Origin: Escherichia coli
GTDB lineage: Bacteria; Pseudomonadota; Gammaproteobacteria; Enterobacterales; Enterobacteriaceae
Assembly: GCF_003334785.1 (NCBI RefSeq)
Contig: NZ_QOWV01000011.1
Reading direction: 5' to 3' (one strand)
DNA: 64,000 bases
The notes under the pieces were generated by a model. The model worked only from the letters and a program-made list of their open reading frames with translations. It searched no databases and was not told the origin of the DNA. This document shows, piece by piece, positions 29,043-39,816 of this stretch. Numbering within the stretch: the stretch's first letter is position 1; the number at the start of each line of letters is the position of its first letter. The position numbers and the translations under genes were made by a program.

Positions 29043-29264
29043 AACGAATCATTCACTTTAAACCTTTACTGACATATTGGTTATATATTCTGAGAAATTT
29101 ATAGTGCAAAAGGCTCGGTGTGCAGACTTACGCCAGCCCAATCAAGCCGTAGTGCTTTAGTTTTGGGGCTTAGGTATGGTGGAAAAAAGCGACTCGTTAA
29201 GCTTACTGAGCTCTATGTATTTCAGGAGTCGGTCAGTAAGTTAACGATCCAAGAGGCTCATCAA

Positions 29265-29537
29265 TCATAAGAGATGTATCAATCTTGCGAGACTCTCACG
29301 GATTTTATCGCCGTCATAAATAGCAATCTCTTCAATATTGTTACCAATGAAAGTTTCAGCTGCCTGGATGGCTATCAGTTCAGACATACCAACGTTATCA
29401 GCCAGCTGGCGTGCTGCAATGACCTTGCTTTCAAGAGTTAGGATGACCGGCCTGTAGCCTGCGCGTTTGATTTTGATACAGTGTGAAATCAATTTCTCCA
29501 TAGGTGCGGTGGTCACTTGGAATGCAGTCGTACCCAC
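29265..29537 (-). CDS. Hypothetical protein, possibly gene remnant
   Basis: 90 aa ORF; flanking 29540-29770 has coding-like composition without intact frame. Confidence 0.3.
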   Translation of the reverse strand: MGTTAFQVTTAPMEKLISHCIKIKRAGYRPVILTLESKVIAARQLADNVGMSELIAIQAAETFIGNNIEEIAIYDGDKIRESLARLIHLL

Positions 29538-30376
29538 CTGAAAGGCCCCTTCACGGTCAATGTGTGGATCATTAGCATTGGCCCTGCGACTACTGATTTT
29601 AACATCTAGGGAAACGTAGCTGATGTTTGGCTTCGATAAGATTCTGTAGCACCGCCTCAGTGGGGTTGTCAGAACATTCCGCTGCCGCCTTAAGAATATC
29701 GCTTACTAGAGATGAAACTGGTTGATTGTAATCCCGGTCGACCGTTACTCTATGTTTATCCGGATAATTTTGGCGTACACATTAAGTGAAGAAAACTTCA
29801 AAGTGATTTGAAACAGATGTTGTATTCACTGGCTCATTTACATTAACTTGAGTGTTGTTCAGCACATGTTGAAACGCAGCTGTAAGGAAGATGATACAGC
29901 CAAGATGTATCCTTCATTATGGGGATTGGCGCGATGACCACCACGGCTTAGCCCGATTGATTATTTGGAAATTGATTAGAATGCATAATCTGGGCTGAGC
30001 TCACTTAAAGTCTCTAATGTTTGACTTGGAGATTTGGGGGGCAGTGGCTTTCAGTTTTGTTAACTCTAACATCTGGTTTACGTTCCTTTTGGAACAAGAA
30101 GCAGAGGTCTGCTAAGTAATGGTTGTACTGCTTGTGATAGGTATGACTGCATGTTCAGCGAGCAAGAATGGCTTAAAAGTTCTGTTACTGAGCACCCCAT
30201 GAAGTTAGAACGATGTCATAACGTGCACGTAACCGTTGAACTGTTCTCTTACAGATAATCTCTACATAGCTATTATTGCTTAGGCGGTAGCTATGTAGAT
30301 GGTTTTTGTAATATTATATTAAAAGTTCATACAGCGACTATAGCATCATTGCGAAAAATATCAGGAGGTGAGTTTA

Positions 30377-32482
30377 ATGTTACGAAAAAGCAAACTTACA
30401 GAGATATATAAAAGGTTTGGTTTTACTGAAGAAAATACAGGTAACGAAAGTATTGCTGTATATTCTATTAAAACAGGGCACTACCATAACGCGGACATAC
30501 TTCCACTAAATAATGAGGTTAATGTAAATCAAACCTTTGAAGAATATAGGCAGTTAGGTTATGCATGTCAAATTAAAAAATATCAGTCTTATGAAGAAGC
30601 ACATAAGGAATTATTTAATGGCTTCTTTAGCGTCGATTCAACTAAAGAAAGGTTGATTAAAGATTATAATACTTTCACAGATTCAATTGTAAAAATTCAC
30701 TCACCTACTGCAACTTATTCCTACATAAATTCAAAATATTACTTAAATGGTGTTATTGGCGAAGCTAATGTTGTTACGGAAATATTAGAGAGAATACAAC
30801 ATAGGCGTCCAATTCTGTTTTTGATTGAGGCTGCAGCCGGTTTTGGAAAGACTTGCACGGCGTATGAATTATTGAGGGAGATTATAGTTAACAATATAGG
30901 GAAAATACCATTATTTTCAGAACTATCAAGGAATAGGCAAGCAAAAATATTCAGGTATGTACTATTAGATGAAATTGATAGAAGTTTTCCTTTGTTAAGC
31001 TCAGCCTTAGTAAGGAATGAAATAAGAGCAGGAAATGTACCAGTTATACTTGACGGGTTTGATGAACTATTGCATGAAAGTACAAACGGAATTGAAAATA
31101 ATTATGAAAAAACAGAGCCAATGCTGGAAACAATAAGTGAGCTTCTAACTGATAGTGCAAAAGTGGTTTTGACAACTCGAAGAACAGCTATATTTGACGG
31201 AGATGAATTCCATCAGTGGATAGCATCACATCAAGAAGATTTTGATGTGATAAGAATAAGAATTCATGAACCACAAATTGAAGACTGGCTTCCAGGTCAA
31301 CGTTTAGATGAAATTTCATCGACAGGATTTCCTCTTAACAAATTATCAAACCCTGTACTGCTATCATTTCTAAGATGCATCGACGACACCGACTTTAATA
31401 AAGTTATAAGCGACCCAACAACTATAGTGAGGAAGTATTTTGATTCAATGCTTGAGCGAGAAAGAAAAAGACAAGATTTATTAATGTCTATTGAAGATCA
31501 ATATACTATACTAAAAATAATAGCTGACGACATGGTCGAGGGTAACTACACATCTGAGTCTAGAGAGTATATATCGTTAGTCATAACTGAAAAGAATCAA
31601 CAACTCTTGGAGGCTACAAGAAAGCTTTATACTGTAGATGAAAGACCAACTACTGACGAATTAGTTAATAAATTAGCATCGCATGCTCTATTAGATCGGT
31701 CAGGCTCAGAAAACCAAGGTATTGGATTTGTTAATGAATTTGTTCTTGGTAATTTTGTTTCTGAAAATATTATTAATGATAAGTCAAATGAATGGATTGG
31801 TGATAAACGTTTTATAGAACCAGCAGTGCAATCTTATATGCCGAGGATCGATGATGAAAAAGAATTACTTTGGCATAGCTTAGAGTTTGCTTTATATTTT
31901 ATGTCAGGTAATGATAAAATCCTTTATAGTCATTTGCTTATAGGAAAAGTTCCATTAGATTTAAAAAATGATAGTGTTGAGCAATTGTCTATATCAAAAC
32001 TTTCTTTAGGCGATATAAATATAATACATGATACTATCTTTGTTGATTGTTCGTTTTTTAGCAGCATATTTACCTGTGGTAATTATAAAAACGTTACATT
32101 CGTGAACTGTTCTTTTATAGATTGTAGTTTTAACGAATTAAGTGGTAGGGAAGATATTTATTTTTTGGGATGTGAATGTGACAATGATGCTATTAATAAA
32201 AAATCTGTCGAGATAAACAGTGAAAATGATCACGATATTACAGATTGTGATATTTACATCTTAGAGAAGTTCTGTCCCAGAGGGAGTGTTAGCTATCATA
32301 AGCATCGGCCTATAAAAGGCTTATGTTCTAACAACAATCAATTTCAGTTAAGTGAAATACTCCATTCTTTAGATAAATTGAGGAAAGACGGTCTTTTACT
32401 TACGCCAGACAAGCGTTCGTTCCTTGAACTTAACATGGCAAGAATATCAGAGATTAAAGCAATTCTTGGGAGGAATTTCTGA
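30377..32482 (+). CDS. NACHT/STAND-type P-loop NTPase with C-terminal pentapeptide repeats
   Basis: Start at ATG 30377 with aggagg RBS; Walker A AAAGFGKT; NACHT-style Walker B VILDGFDEL; C-terminal run FVDCSF-FSSIF-TCGNY-KNVTF-VNCSF-IDCSF. Confidence 0.7.
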   Translation: MLRKSKLTEIYKRFGFTEENTGNESIAVYSIKTGHYHNADILPLNNEVNVNQTFEEYRQLGYACQIKKYQSYEEAHKELFNGFFSVDSTKERLIKDYNTFTDSIVKIHSPTATYSYINSKYYLNGVIGEANVVTEILERIQHRRPILFLIEAAAGFGKTCTAYELLREIIVNNIGKIPLFSELSRNRQAKIFRYVLLDEIDRSFPLLSSALVRNEIRAGNVPVILDGFDELLHESTNGIENNYEKTEPMLETISELLTDSAKVVLTTRRTAIFDGDEFHQWIASHQEDFDVIRIRIHEPQIEDWLPGQRLDEISSTGFPLNKLSNPVLLSFLRCIDDTDFNKVISDPTTIVRKYFDSMLERERKRQDLLMSIEDQYTILKIIADDMVEGNYTSESREYISLVITEKNQQLLEATRKLYTVDERPTTDELVNKLASHALLDRSGSENQGIGFVNEFVLGNFVSENIINDKSNEWIGDKRFIEPAVQSYMPRIDDEKELLWHSLEFALYFMSGNDKILYSHLLIGKVPLDLKNDSVEQLSISKLSLGDINIIHDTIFVDCSFFSSIFTCGNYKNVTFVNCSFIDCSFNELSGREDIYFLGCECDNDAINKKSVEINSENDHDITDCDIYILEKFCPRGSVSYHKHRPIKGLCSNNNQFQLSEILHSLDKLRKDGLLLTPDKRSFLELNMARISEIKAILGRNF

Positions 32483-33387
32483 TGTATAACGGGAATGAAT
32501 TGCGAATTATTCAAAGTTTGCAAAAAGATATAGAAGATGAACTTAATCGTATTGGATTACTTTATCGTTTTTTTTCGAGGACAAAATCAGAAAGCTCAAT
32601 AATTAAGAAATATGAAAAAGAGCCTAATAAATACTCAGAGGATGGTAAAAAAATTCAAGACTTATTTGGGGTTAGGATAATATTATATTTTCCTGATGAT
32701 TTATTTATTGCTCAAAAAACACTGGAGAAATTATTCGAAATTGAATCTAAAACCGTAGACGAAACCACGGCTAATCTCTTTGCGGCAACTCGATGCAATT
32801 ACGTCTTTAAGTTACCAGAAGTATTATCAAATGATAGTGTCTTATTAAAGAAATATTCTTATATTGATACTACTTTTGAAGTCCAATTTAGAACTATTTT
32901 ATCTGAAGGATGGCATGAAGTTGAGCATGATCTACGCTATAAGTGCAAAGAGGATTGGGTTGAGCATAATGACCTTAGTCGCGCGCTGAATGGAATTTAC
33001 GCCTCTTTGGAAACATCTGATTGGGGAATAATGAAGTTATTTGAGGATTTAGCATATAGAAATTATAAGTCAAGCGCATGGTCCGCTATGCTAAGAAATA
33101 AATTAAGATTGAGAATGGACGATAAGCTTGATGAAAAGATAATTTCAATAATTAATGAGAAAGAGCTTGGTAAAAAGTTTTATAGAATTGACAGAGATCG
33201 TTTGTTATCGTTAATGTTAGATTATAATATTGATATACCAATTAATCTTAATAATATAATTTACCTTTGTAATTATTTTTTCATAAAATCTACGGAGCTT
33301 CAGGATATAGCCCCTGCTTTAATAATGAAAAAGCTTACAGATGCTGATGAAAAATTCAATAAAAATACTATTTTAGCATCTAAATAA
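32482..33387 (+). CDS. RelA/SpoT-domain nucleotidyltransferase (alarmone-synthetase / toxSAS-like)
   Basis: Start overlaps upstream stop (TGATG); motifs FSRTKSESSIIKKYEK, DLFGVRIILYFPDD and EVQFRTILSEGWHEVEHD correspond to the RelA/SpoT synthetase fold (G/RxKS..S, D..G.RII, ExQIRT). Confidence 0.65.
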   Translation: MYNGNELRIIQSLQKDIEDELNRIGLLYRFFSRTKSESSIIKKYEKEPNKYSEDGKKIQDLFGVRIILYFPDDLFIAQKTLEKLFEIESKTVDETTANLFAATRCNYVFKLPEVLSNDSVLLKKYSYIDTTFEVQFRTILSEGWHEVEHDLRYKCKEDWVEHNDLSRALNGIYASLETSDWGIMKLFEDLAYRNYKSSAWSAMLRNKLRLRMDDKLDEKIISIINEKELGKKFYRIDRDRLLSLMLDYNIDIPINLNNIIYLCNYFFIKSTELQDIAPALIMKKLTDADEKFNKNTILASK

Positions 33388-33405
33388 TAACTATCTCCGG
33401 CTATT

Positions 33406-33433
33406 AAGTAGGCCTTGTATTTTAGGCCTACTT
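33406..33433. terminator. Hairpin downstream of the NTPase-RelA/SpoT pair
   Basis: Stem aagtaggcc/ggcctactt with 9-nt loop; A-run on plus side, so may serve either strand. Confidence 0.4.
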
Positions 33434-33766
33434 AAAAAGTTTCATTATGTGAAGTGATGATGATAGCAAATCTGCTATCTTTATGGTTGGATGCGAGAAA
33501 ATATTTTTATCCCGACACAACAACTGGTAATGATAGAAAATTTAAACCCAAAAATGCTACAGTAGCCTCAGCTCACAAACGGAGTATAAAGTGGCGGTTA
33601 CTCTTTAGTGGGAATACTGTAGATAGTTGATAAACTGGGCTGGATTTTCTTTTCTAACCGAAGGGAAGAAAAGCAAGGGGAACCCAAAGAAACAAGCGCA
33701 GCGGCTTCGTAGGGTTAGCCCTTGCTTCTTTTATAATTGGCATTATTCATTCAAGAACAATAGGAT

Positions 33767-33786
33767 CTTCGCTTGTACAAGCGAAG
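33767..33786. promoter_or_regulatory. Perfect 20-bp palindrome cttcgcttgtacaagcgaag
   Basis: Direct read; lies in 1-kb ORF-free AT-rich spacer downstream of ParB-like genes. Confidence 0.5.
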
Positions 33787-34439
33787 CTATAATAAAAAAT
33801 CAATTAATTATTTTAAAAGTATTAAGCAAGAGCCTATTGACATTCGTAAAATAAAAGTTATTTTTAATGTATGCCATAAATAAAAAGTTTTATGTCATAT
33901 GTATCCTGCACTATGTGCAGTTAATGTGCCACTTGTCCCATATATGGGAATATTGGAAAGGTTACTTTGTTTTGAAGTAGCCTTTCGTCCTTCAATATTC
34001 ACGATTACTTATTGCTATTACCAAGTCCAGTCGAATCGAAGAACATCTTTTATCTGAAACGACTCCTAATACCAGGTTGAAGCCACAATATCTCTCGCAT
34101 AAGTAGACCAAAGAAAAATTATGATATTAACTATGTGATTTTTTTTAGTGTTAAGTTGAATAATTATATACTGGAGAGTTTTCTGTACACTACCAATTGC
34201 TGGTTCATCTGTTCTGCCGCTGATGTTTCTGACTAATCTCCCGGTGACACAGAACTGTCCCTCTCTACCAGCCTTTATTCGACTCAATGTCCGGCTGCTG
34301 ATACGCAGTTATCCCTTCGTATCAATGACTGACTCTTAAACGCAATGCTTTGGTTGCTGGCGTATCTGACAGCTTCTTCGGCGTGAAGGTCGTTGTGTAA
34401 GTATACTTCTTGGTTTATTTAGGCTATATAAAACCATGA

Positions 34440-36229: not shown

Positions 36230-37775
36230 ATAGTTCCCTCACTTTCATGCGAGTAATAATTTGTAGAAATTTATCAAGATTATCAAATCTATAGAGATCT
36301 AACCGAATGTTGTTTGTTTCCATCATACACATTTTACTATATTCGTTTTCAATCTTTGGTATGATATAAAAATCAAGAGGTGAAATATTTTGTGAATTCA
36401 TTCGTATAACAATTGTTATGTCTGCTTTCTGTGAGTTATCAAACCGGACTTTCCATCTAAGTTTACCTGATTTCATATGTATGCATTTAGTAACAAGGAC
36501 GGAAATTAAAAACTCATCATTGATGTAAAGCATTGGGTAATATTTATACTCGTCTATATGACAGTTACTTTTTAATATTTCGCCCTTAAAATCCTCAATT
36601 ATCTCTGAGTAAAATGATCTTAGTGCTTCATTTATTTGGAGATAGCTGTAATCATGTTCTGGCTTATAACCAATCAAAGTATATGCTCTTAAAAGACCAC
36701 CAAATCGGGTTCTATAAACAGAAGATGAAGGGCCTGTATCATCTTCATCAATGATAAAGCCTGATAGTTTTCCATTAGATTCTAATTTTTCTTTTAGCTT
36801 TTCTAATAGATCTTCATTAGTCAAATGAATGGATCGGAGCTGAATTATTTCTTGAGCTTTATTATATTTTTTCTTTGAAATAATTGGTTTATATGCCTTG
36901 TCACATCTAATCCATTCATGTTTGGGGTTTTTTACAAGCTTACTTTTTAGTTTAGATGAGGTTTTGTTATATATGTTGTTTCCAATATATTTTTCATTTG
37001 TCAAAATTTGATGTATTTTTGCACGAGTCCATGATGTTCCATTTTCTGCAGGTATGCTCTGTTCATTTAATCTCTCAGCAATAATGAATTCTGGGACGTT
37101 ACTATCTATAAAGAGATCATAGATTCTATTTACAATTTTTATTTCATTTTTTGGTCCCGGAATTAATATTACCCTATCTGTTTGAATACTCTTTCTTTTG
37201 CGGAAATTCAATATTTCTTTAGCTATGCCATTTTCGTCTACTAAAAGACGTCTCAGCCCATAACCAGCCATACCGCCTTGATGATAACCAAGCTTTATTA
37301 AATTTACTTGCCCTATAAATACCTTTTCAGATAGATTCCTGCTGTGATATGCAGCACTTGATCTTTTTATATTCAGTATAACAGAGGACTCTAAAGGGAA
37401 ATCTTTAGTGGGTATAGGTTCGGAACAATATATAAGATCTACACCATTTCTTTCAAATAGAAAGGAATAATATGCAGCTTCATCACTATTTTGAAAACGA
37501 CCAAAACGGCTCACATCATAAAATAATACAGCCTGTATATCTATTTTCTTTTGTTCTACATCGCTAAGTAACTGCTGCAAAGAATGCCTGCCTACGATAC
37601 TGACTCCGCTCTTACCTGCATCATCGTAGGTATAAGCGATTTCCATATTGTTCTTTTCAGCATAATCTTTGATATATTCAGACTGATTATGTAAAGAATA
37701 TTGCTGATGGTCGGTAGACATCCTCAAGTACTGTGCGACCCTAACTCTATGATTTTTTTCATTTCCGCTAGCCAT
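36219..37775 (-). CDS. Large serine recombinase (resolvase + recombinase domains)
   Basis: N-terminal resolvase motif YLRMSTDHQQYSLHNQ with catalytic-Ser context and DVSRFGRF; downstream recombinase-domain pattern (SWTRAKIHQILTNEKYIGN); start at ATG 37775. Confidence 0.7.
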   Translation of the reverse strand: MASGNEKNHRVRVAQYLRMSTDHQQYSLHNQSEYIKDYAEKNNMEIAYTYDDAGKSGVSIVGRHSLQQLLSDVEQKKIDIQAVLFYDVSRFGRFQNSDEAAYYSFLFERNGVDLIYCSEPIPTKDFPLESSVILNIKRSSAAYHSRNLSEKVFIGQVNLIKLGYHQGGMAGYGLRRLLVDENGIAKEILNFRKRKSIQTDRVILIPGPKNEIKIVNRIYDLFIDSNVPEFIIAERLNEQSIPAENGTSWTRAKIHQILTNEKYIGNNIYNKTSSKLKSKLVKNPKHEWIRCDKAYKPIISKKKYNKAQEIIQLRSIHLTNEDLLEKLKEKLESNGKLSGFIIDEDDTGPSSSVYRTRFGGLLRAYTLIGYKPEHDYSYLQINEALRSFYSEIIEDFKGEILKSNCHIDEYKYYPMLYINDEFLISVLVTKCIHMKSGKLRWKVRFDNSQKADITIVIRMNSQNISPLDFYIIPKIENEYSKMCMMETNNIRLDLYRFDNLDKFLQIITRMKVRELYAA

Positions 37776-39453: not shown

Positions 39454-39816
39454 TGGTGGAGCTGGCGGGAGTTGAACCCGCGTCCGAAATTCCTACATCC
39501 TCGGTACTACATGCTTAGTCAGTCTTTACATTCGCTTGCCAGCTGCGGACGGACACGCCACTAACAAACTAGCCTGATTAAGTTTTAACGCTTCAACCCC
39601 AGGCAGGGCTTCCACGCGATCTCTTTTGGGTTTGACCTCTCTTGATCCCCGTCCTAAGAGCGGAGGCTAGGGAGAGAGGGCTCTAAGCAGGTTATTAAGC
39701 TGCTAAAGCGTAGTTTTCGTCGTTTGCGACTATTTTTTGCGGCTTTTTACGAGGCCAACCGCCCCTCGGCATGCACCTTGGGTTTCGCAAATCCCGTCGA
39801 ATCCAGAATCAGCCCC
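39454..39816 (-). ncRNA. ssrA: tmRNA (SsrA)
   Basis: 363 nt; minus-strand sense begins ggggctgattctggattcgacggg and ends ...gggttcaactcccgccagctccacca; tag-encoding region present. Confidence 0.95.

Follow-up and report, generated by a model that had tools for sequence, protein, structure and literature searches.

The closest described counterparts of the inverted repeat analysed here are the intrinsic terminators of Enterobacteria, particularly those extended by A-tract/U-tract pairing, in which a stable hairpin is combined with a U-rich tract and an A-rich stretch upstream of the hairpin can pair with the U-run. Promoter-overlapping palindromic operators form a second class for comparison, and REP/BIME elements and MITEs a third. 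Our repeat lies 5' of a NACHT NTPase gene in a 64,000-nucleotide stretch of DNA (the window) from the Escherichia coli chromosome. It resembles the extended terminators in its stable hairpin, its U-rich tract, a folding energy in the range of real terminators in the window, and an upstream A-rich stretch able to pair with the U-run. It differs from them in its AT-rich stem (4 of 12 pairs are G-C), its long nominal loop, the 3-nt gap before the U-run, the lack of a co-oriented upstream gene, and its lack of conservation among sister cassettes. We tentatively propose that this lineage-specific 5' hairpin acts on the plus strand as a weak, terminator-like insulator lying next to the operon promoter or overlapping it, a reading that we regard as possible rather than probable and for which a DNA-level operator and a functionless palindrome are close rivals. 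In the proposed mechanism, the RNA would form an AT-rich hairpin of ~39-63 nt with a U-run after it; this structure would stop or weaken transcription coming in from upstream, and the NTPase/RelA-SpoT pair, probably costly, would be left to its own promoter. Nothing about the hairpin falls outside known kinds of element.

The element is a perfect 12-bp inverted repeat on the plus strand, with a left arm TCTACATAGCTA (30261-30272) that includes the self-complementary hexamer TAGCTA, a 15-nt spacer (30273-30287), and a right arm TAGCTATGTAGA (30288-30299) with TGGTTTTTG next on its 3' side. The preliminary description had placed the repeat correctly but had given it an 11-bp stem and a 16-nt loop; the outer A-T pair that it included (30258/30300) forms only with a 2-nt bulge. 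It had also noted a T-run after the repeat (five T at 30303-30307, 3 nt past the perfect stem) and a distance of about 75 bp to the NACHT gene, the exact figure being 77 nt from the end of the right arm (30299) to the annotated ATG (30377). Within the spacer, a 3-bp apical stem is predicted (30277-30279 with 30284-30286) that closes a UUAG loop, so the nominal 15-nt loop becomes a tetraloop only if this stem forms; sequence variants receive a different predicted apical pairing. Beyond the perfect arms, the predicted fold extends through a lower stem of 30249-30260 with 30301-30311, giving a full span of 30249-30311 in which the T-run pairs with the A-rich stretch upstream and several pairs are G-U. 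A repeat finder reported 24-nt arms at 79% complementarity over 30249-30272 and 30288-30311. This extension takes the leading T's of the run into pairs and leaves UUUGU behind it.

As plus-strand RNA, the 71-nt segment folds at -27.8 kcal/mol (z = -5.86), an energy equalled by none of 200 shuffles, against -19.1 kcal/mol (z = -4.67) for the minus strand; with DNA parameters, the repeat gives z = -5.6. The 51-nt core shows the same difference between strands (-22.0 kcal/mol for plus and -15.9 kcal/mol for minus), and the pairs beyond the perfect arms are G-U pairs, usable on the plus strand only. A first-order Markov simulation of the window yielded an expectation of 0.12 perfect repeats of at least 12 bp with a loop of 3-30 per 64 kb, and when 200 stretches of 830 nt were simulated at the local composition, not one contained such a repeat of at least 12 bp. 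The 5' inverted repeat is thus real and non-random.

The window carries the tmRNA (39454-39816), the Phe leader, and RyfD, and the hairpin sits in a mobilizable island integrated at ssrA, which encodes an integrase, a serine recombinase, two ParB-like proteins, and a relaxase. This island is found in 62 of 5426 complete E. coli genomes (~1%), with at least 99% identity; MRE162 and NCTC9100 are among the carrier strains. A search of the window for repeats of at least 12 nt of the ssrA 3' region returned none and left the distal end of the island unlocated. Elsewhere in the window, a tRNA with the anticodon CAT (13229-13304), called tRNA-Met but perhaps the ileY of the K-12 map, adjoins a long AT-rich stretch (~32-33% G+C at 12-15 kb).

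Upstream of the hairpin lies a frameshifted pseudogene of the DUF4928 / type II restriction-enzyme family, detectable at 29225-29895 on the minus strand. Its match covers profile positions 95-301 of 331, and the N-terminal ~94 residues are undetectable. The pseudogene is an orphan, as no methyltransferase gene is annotated nearby, and the DUF4928 homologs that we recovered are truncated too, all being of 199 aa or less. Degraded coding sequence had been suspected in this region from the outset; it is real, but it runs on the minus strand, opposite to the hairpin and the NACHT gene. Its lost 5' end faces the hairpin, which therefore cannot terminate the pseudogene, and we rejected a role as the terminator of the upstream degraded gene on this ground. 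For more than 6 kb upstream, all annotated genes, pseudogene included, run opposite to the hairpin, which leaves it no obvious transcript to stop.

Downstream, the NACHT NTPase gene (30377-32482, plus strand), which encodes an NA-iREase2 N-terminal domain (PF22723) and a NACHT domain, is followed by a RelA/SpoT-domain gene (32482-33387, plus strand) that overlaps the NACHT stop codon; the two form one operon. Some homologs of the NACHT protein carry the name pentapeptide-repeat protein in their source records. The pair is a portable and widespread two-gene cassette that occurs among unrelated neighbours in many gammaproteobacteria, and we recovered 1630 homologs at E <= 1e-20. The NACHT protein matched none of the PADLOC-DB v2 models, its RelA/SpoT partner gave a weak match to PDC-S33, and a search of one literature library returned no paper mentioning the accession of the NACHT protein or the NA-iREase name. 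The pair may be a defence-type system not yet catalogued in PADLOC-DB v2.

Comparison of cassettes places the hairpin in the 5' flank of this unit. Homology to a Citrobacter cassette (NACHT 89% identical in amino acids) spans 30212-33438 at 84% DNA identity, and a Morganellaceae cassette (NACHT 86%) matches at 81% DNA identity from 30304 by BLAST (~30285 in an alignment) to 33356. Pectobacterium-type cassettes match from 30367 at 78-79% DNA identity, and an Enterobacter copy matches over 29478-34101 at 98%. No DUF4928 remnant was found beside cassettes other than those of the E. coli type. Because the Citrobacter homology begins at 30212 and DUF4928 is missing elsewhere, the hairpin, judged by homology, belongs to the 5' flank of the cassette (30212-30376, plus strand, with a ribosome-binding site AGGAGG at 30363-30368) and not to the restriction-enzyme module. 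We accordingly discarded the idea that it is part of a restriction-modification module, since the same flank is present in the cassettes of Citrobacter and Morganellaceae without the DUF4928 remnant.

The cassette also carries a hairpin at its opposite edge, which provides a comparison from the same system. A second perfect 12-bp inverted repeat, TTAAGTAGGCCT-N8-AGGCCTACTTAA (33404-33435, plus strand), lies 17 nt past the RelA/SpoT stop codon and folds at -19.8 kcal/mol; the Citrobacter homology ends at its edge (33438). The two hairpins are alike in being perfect 12-bp repeats of similar energy, but the 5' hairpin is confined to two lineages, whereas a strong hairpin follows the RelA/SpoT stop codon in every lineage examined (L013, L014, L017, L019, L020, L021, and L024). 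The arm sequences of these 3' hairpins differ, and most are without a clear U-tract; we compared them by individual folds, as a MAFFT alignment set two lineages out of register. Since the 3' hairpin is found in all lineages examined and the 5' one is not, only the 3' hairpin behaves like a conserved functional element. Farther on, a strong hairpin at 33672-33726 with T-runs on both strands (-23.8 and -22.5 kcal/mol), placed between the cassette and an IS3 remnant, looks like a bidirectional terminator. In the metagenome contig L019, a second NA-iREase2-domain gene (7654-8106) lies ~1.6 kb downstream of the first cassette, giving tandem NACHT cassettes.

An insulating terminator had been suggested for the 5' hairpin, and its anatomy fits this role, with a hairpin energy and a T content in the range of real terminators in the window. 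Scored alike with all 578 hairpin and T-run candidates in the window, it ranks 19th, with a core of -18.3 kcal/mol, a gap of 3 nt, and seven T in the next 10 nt. For comparison, the hairpins with T-runs just downstream of ssrA and within the Phe leader (pheA attenuator) region score -16.3 and -16.0 kcal/mol, respectively. The suggestion is weakened by the AT-rich stem, the long loop, the 3-nt gap before the T-run, the want of a co-oriented gene upstream, the absence of the hairpin from sister cassettes, the arm mismatch tolerated in a near-identical copy, and the lack of a T-run in the one other lineage with a similar repeat. A consensus terminator scan did not call the 5' hairpin. The other perfect repeats of at least 11 bp in the window have short loops and flanking A/T runs, like ordinary intrinsic terminators. 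In other hosts, the cassette lies directly downstream of co-oriented genes, including a resolvase 70 nt upstream (L020), a relaxase (L024), and a Fic gene (L014), so read-through into the operon is realistic and an insulator at its 5' side would be sensible. As sister cassettes are without the hairpin, it would most likely be an ordinary, dispensable insulator rather than a new kind of element.

The distribution of the 5' hairpin is narrow. The same arms are found in all unbroken E. coli copies, six metagenome loci, Enterobacter, and three viral-contig hits, the last of which represent the same island. The homologous segments of the sister cassettes align across the spacer and right arm but form no hairpin; the Citrobacter segment gives -8.4 kcal/mol (z -0.2) and the Morganellaceae segment -4.6 kcal/mol (z +0.8), and many pairs are broken in a consensus test. 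Across 76 cassette upstream regions, the best perfect repeats are mostly of 5-8 bp. The motif TCTAC...GTAGA occurs in three of 68 non-redundant upstream regions and is absent from the other 65, against a mean of 0.54 and a maximum of three in shuffles. A general feature of the cassette was thereby ruled out, and from these comparisons the 5' hairpin appears to be an accessory, lineage-specific trait of the cassette as carried by E. coli and Enterobacter and not a core part of the system.

One further lineage (L021-23, NACHT 77% identical in amino acids) has a 10-bp repeat, ATCTCTACTT-N20-AAGTAGAGAT, at -132 to -93, which starts with the same octamer as the repeat in the window but has different inner arms; no T-run adjoins it on either strand. 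Within this lineage, L021 and L022 diverge by ~10% over 1275-2353, a stretch that takes in the gene for a Xer-like recombinase and the initial ~90 nt of intergenic sequence, and are identical from 2354, 16 nt before their repeat, through the cassette and beyond, a switch that, on this comparison, is a sharp recombination breakpoint.

Among close relatives of the window, variation in the element is scarce and goes both ways with respect to pairing. Of the 48 E. coli copies covering the region, 45 are 100% identical. The Enterobacter copy has C30279T with G30284A, which on one apical fold would look compensatory for the C-G pair there. We did not count this pair as covariation, because the minimum-energy fold of the Enterobacter sequence uses another apical pairing; G30284A also occurs without C30279T in two other copies. 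In one of these (L030), it accompanies T30296C, which places an A.C mismatch in the stem, and in the other, an E. coli genome, it accompanies A30297G, which turns U-A into U.G and leaves the position paired on the plus strand. Changes in the arm thus both keep and break pairing. One E. coli lineage (two genomes) has G30302T, which lengthens the T-run to six, a change in keeping with a terminator. When SNP density was compared over ~8 kb in the same genomes, the element showed no clear deficit and no significant excess, and we therefore set aside both a mutational hotspot and strong constraint at the hairpin.

These patterns bear on whether the repeat has any function. An imperfect repeat of the flank could have been perfected by mutation, for example by template switching at a quasi-palindrome, and could persist through the recent spread of the island. 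In favour of this explanation, which we consider rather unlikely, the Citrobacter homolog is an imperfect version of the repeat, with eight of 12 positions able to pair if G-U is allowed (counted manually from the alignment). The arms in the window differ from those of relatives where the change makes the arms match each other, mismatches build up in close variants, the SNP density of the element is no lower than that of neighbouring non-coding DNA, and the near-identity of the E. coli copies leaves little time for selection. Yet chance would very rarely produce a perfect repeat of 12 bp, and the perfect 10-bp repeat of L021-23, with the same outer octamer and other inner arms, looks like maintenance of pairing. 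The G-U extensions usable on the plus strand only, together with the adjacent T-run, would also be left unexplained by a functionless palindrome.

Starting at the right arm and ending at the ATG, the sequences of the window, Citrobacter, and Morganellaceae are conserved and can be aligned, and a TG-preceded hexamer and a ribosome-binding site are common to all three. The hexamer, a candidate -10 element TAATAT (30309-30314, plus strand) that was put forward from conservation and not called by a promoter scan, aligns with TATTAT in Citrobacter and TATAAT in Morganellaceae, forming a conserved TA..AT hexamer 9 nt past the stem. On this evidence, we infer that the operon promoter probably lies between the right arm and the ATG, so that the repeat would extend from about -60 to -22. 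As the shared hexamer is downstream of the stem, the layout would be that of a terminator followed by a promoter, consistent with an insulator.

The same layout can accommodate a DNA-level operator at which a repressor, an activator, or a nucleoid protein would bind at the operon promoter. We think this rather unlikely overall; the site would span about -60 to -22, centred near -41, reckoned from a guessed transcription start near 30321. Like promoter-overlapping palindromic operators, the element shows dyad symmetry across -60 to -22 of the likely promoter and overlaps a conserved promoter-like segment, and the promoter scan picked out a weaker match (CTTACA-17-TATTAT, 30248-30276), lying within the repeat, that could serve as an alternative. 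TAGCTA recurs in each arm, 21 bp apart, and in two cases an IS has come to lie between the left arm with the spacer and the rest of the region. The independent repeat of L021-23 shares its opening octamer (ATCTCTAC / GTAGAGAT) with the repeat in the window and lies about as far from the ATG, even though its inner arms differ, which makes the likeness sequence-specific and not purely structural. Unlike known palindromic operators, the element has 12-bp arms set 15 nt apart, an unusual geometry, and no cognate regulator gene was found, either in the two-gene cassette or, among identified genes, in the island. The start-to-start spacing of the half-sites, 34 nt in one lineage and 29 nt in the other, fits the base of a hairpin better than a rigid dimer site. 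The closest sister cassettes, moreover, are without the element yet have the same downstream promoter-like sequence, and three occurrences of the motif in 68 regions do not exceed the shuffle maximum.

A bolder form of the operator idea would treat the ATCTCTAC...GTAGA(GA)T dyad of the two lineages as an ancestral protein-recognised cis-regulatory site, with the N-terminal 'inactive restriction endonuclease' domain of the NACHT protein as the candidate binder. We consider this very improbable. If it were true, the NACHT sensor would bind its own promoter, either to regulate itself or to rest tethered to DNA, and adaptive retuning of a costly defence operon would account for the IS insertions and point changes at the dyad. 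In the Vibrio locus L006, a 10-bp perfect inverted repeat, ATAAAACCAT-N9-ATGGTTTTAT, lies ~30 nt upstream of the start of the NACHT homolog, with the ribosome-binding site inside it and its far end extending into the start codon; it is possibly a translational control hairpin, unrelated to the 5' hairpin of the E. coli cassette.

Two independent IS insertions have struck the right arm in other E. coli genomes. An IS2 (strain Res13-Lact) is flanked by a 5-bp duplication, GTAGC (30287-30291), with a further small deletion in one IS2 sub-lineage, and an IS10-like ISVsa5 (strain RM10410) is flanked by a 9-bp duplication, AGCTATGTA (30289-30297), that fits the IS10 target consensus NRCNNNGYN (PMC2758499). 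Insertion of IS10 and IS2 has been tied to bent promoter DNA (PMC2758499). Disruptions are not limited to the hairpin. A comparison of 29890-31430 across E. coli genomes (L002-L004, L114-L116, and L120) included an IS3 upstream of the operon at about 29890-29897 and, within the NACHT gene, an ISEc43 at 31041-31049 and an IS2 at 31423-31429. An IS100 interrupts the integrase gene of the island, and in strain P13-6 the RelA/SpoT gene has a 1-nt deletion at 32694 and is annotated as split. The set of changes points to an operon that has repeatedly been inactivated or retuned, no less than to targeting of the hairpin as such.

If the promoter instead lay upstream of 30249, the hairpin and U-run would fall within the leader and might limit expression of the operon as a 5'-UTR hairpin or attenuator. 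The position of a hairpin and U-run 77 nt ahead of the start codon is compatible with this arrangement, and the hairpin remains intact when 201 nt are folded. We judge it improbable all the same, as the 49 nt of cassette flank available (30212-30260) hold no convincing promoter upstream of the hairpin, there is no leader ORF and no alternative antiterminator pairing, and the sister cassettes are without the hairpin. Nor does the element match an Rfam family; a search of 29700-30450 against Rfam 15 gave chance-level hits only (E 2.4-3.4, 17-18 bits), below the gathering score.

The position of the hairpin 49 nt inside the left limit of Citrobacter homology, with another hairpin at the right limit, also raises the question of a recombination or mobility structure at the cassette end that would act as folded DNA, such as an attC-like or transposon-end hairpin. 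Cassettes often adjoin recombinases, and the switch from divergence to identity between L021 and L022 falls just ahead of their repeat. The limits of homology, however, vary with the pair compared (29478, 30212, ~30285-30304, and 30367), so there is no fixed crossover point. GTTRRRY-type cores were not seen on inspection of the sequence, nor do the two ends carry a matching inverted copy or a target duplication. The neighbouring recombinase in L021 is Xer-like and, at 71 bits, falls far short of the 265-bit cut-off for integron integrases, which likewise led us to dismiss an integron-like L021 locus. The element is also single-copy in each genome. A recombination site is thus largely refuted, and we give it very little credence.

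Single-copy status also separates the hairpin from repeat families. It resembles REP/BIME elements and MITEs as intergenic hairpin-forming DNA that attracts IS insertions, but unlike them it is confined to this island and occupies one place per genome; the two-place cases examined were copies split by an IS. With nothing found in plasmids or phages, we excluded a repeat family or the end of a mobile element. Two one-mismatch copies of an arm occur elsewhere in the window, against ~0.2 expected from global shuffles. One, TAGCCATGTAGA (14023-14034), sits 21 nt ahead of the ATG that starts an ORF at 14055; the other, TCTACATCGCTA (37555-37566), falls within the gene for the serine recombinase. 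Both lack a partner arm, and in DNA this AT-rich we judged them to be chance matches and not members of a family.

Taken alone, the 5' hairpin matters little; it is a plausible insulator on one version of the cassette, and the sister cassettes manage without it. Its use is greater as a landmark of the portable unit 30212-33438, which comprises the flank with the hairpin, the NACHT and RelA/SpoT genes, and the 3' hairpin. Anyone cloning NACHT-RelA/SpoT with its native promoter should include 30212-30376 or knowingly leave it out. The hairpin also marks a stretch that has been altered repeatedly in E. coli lineages, by IS2 and IS10-like insertions and by lengthening of the T-run. The recurrence of independent disruptions suggests that the NACHT-RelA/SpoT system is costly to its hosts and is often switched off or retuned.
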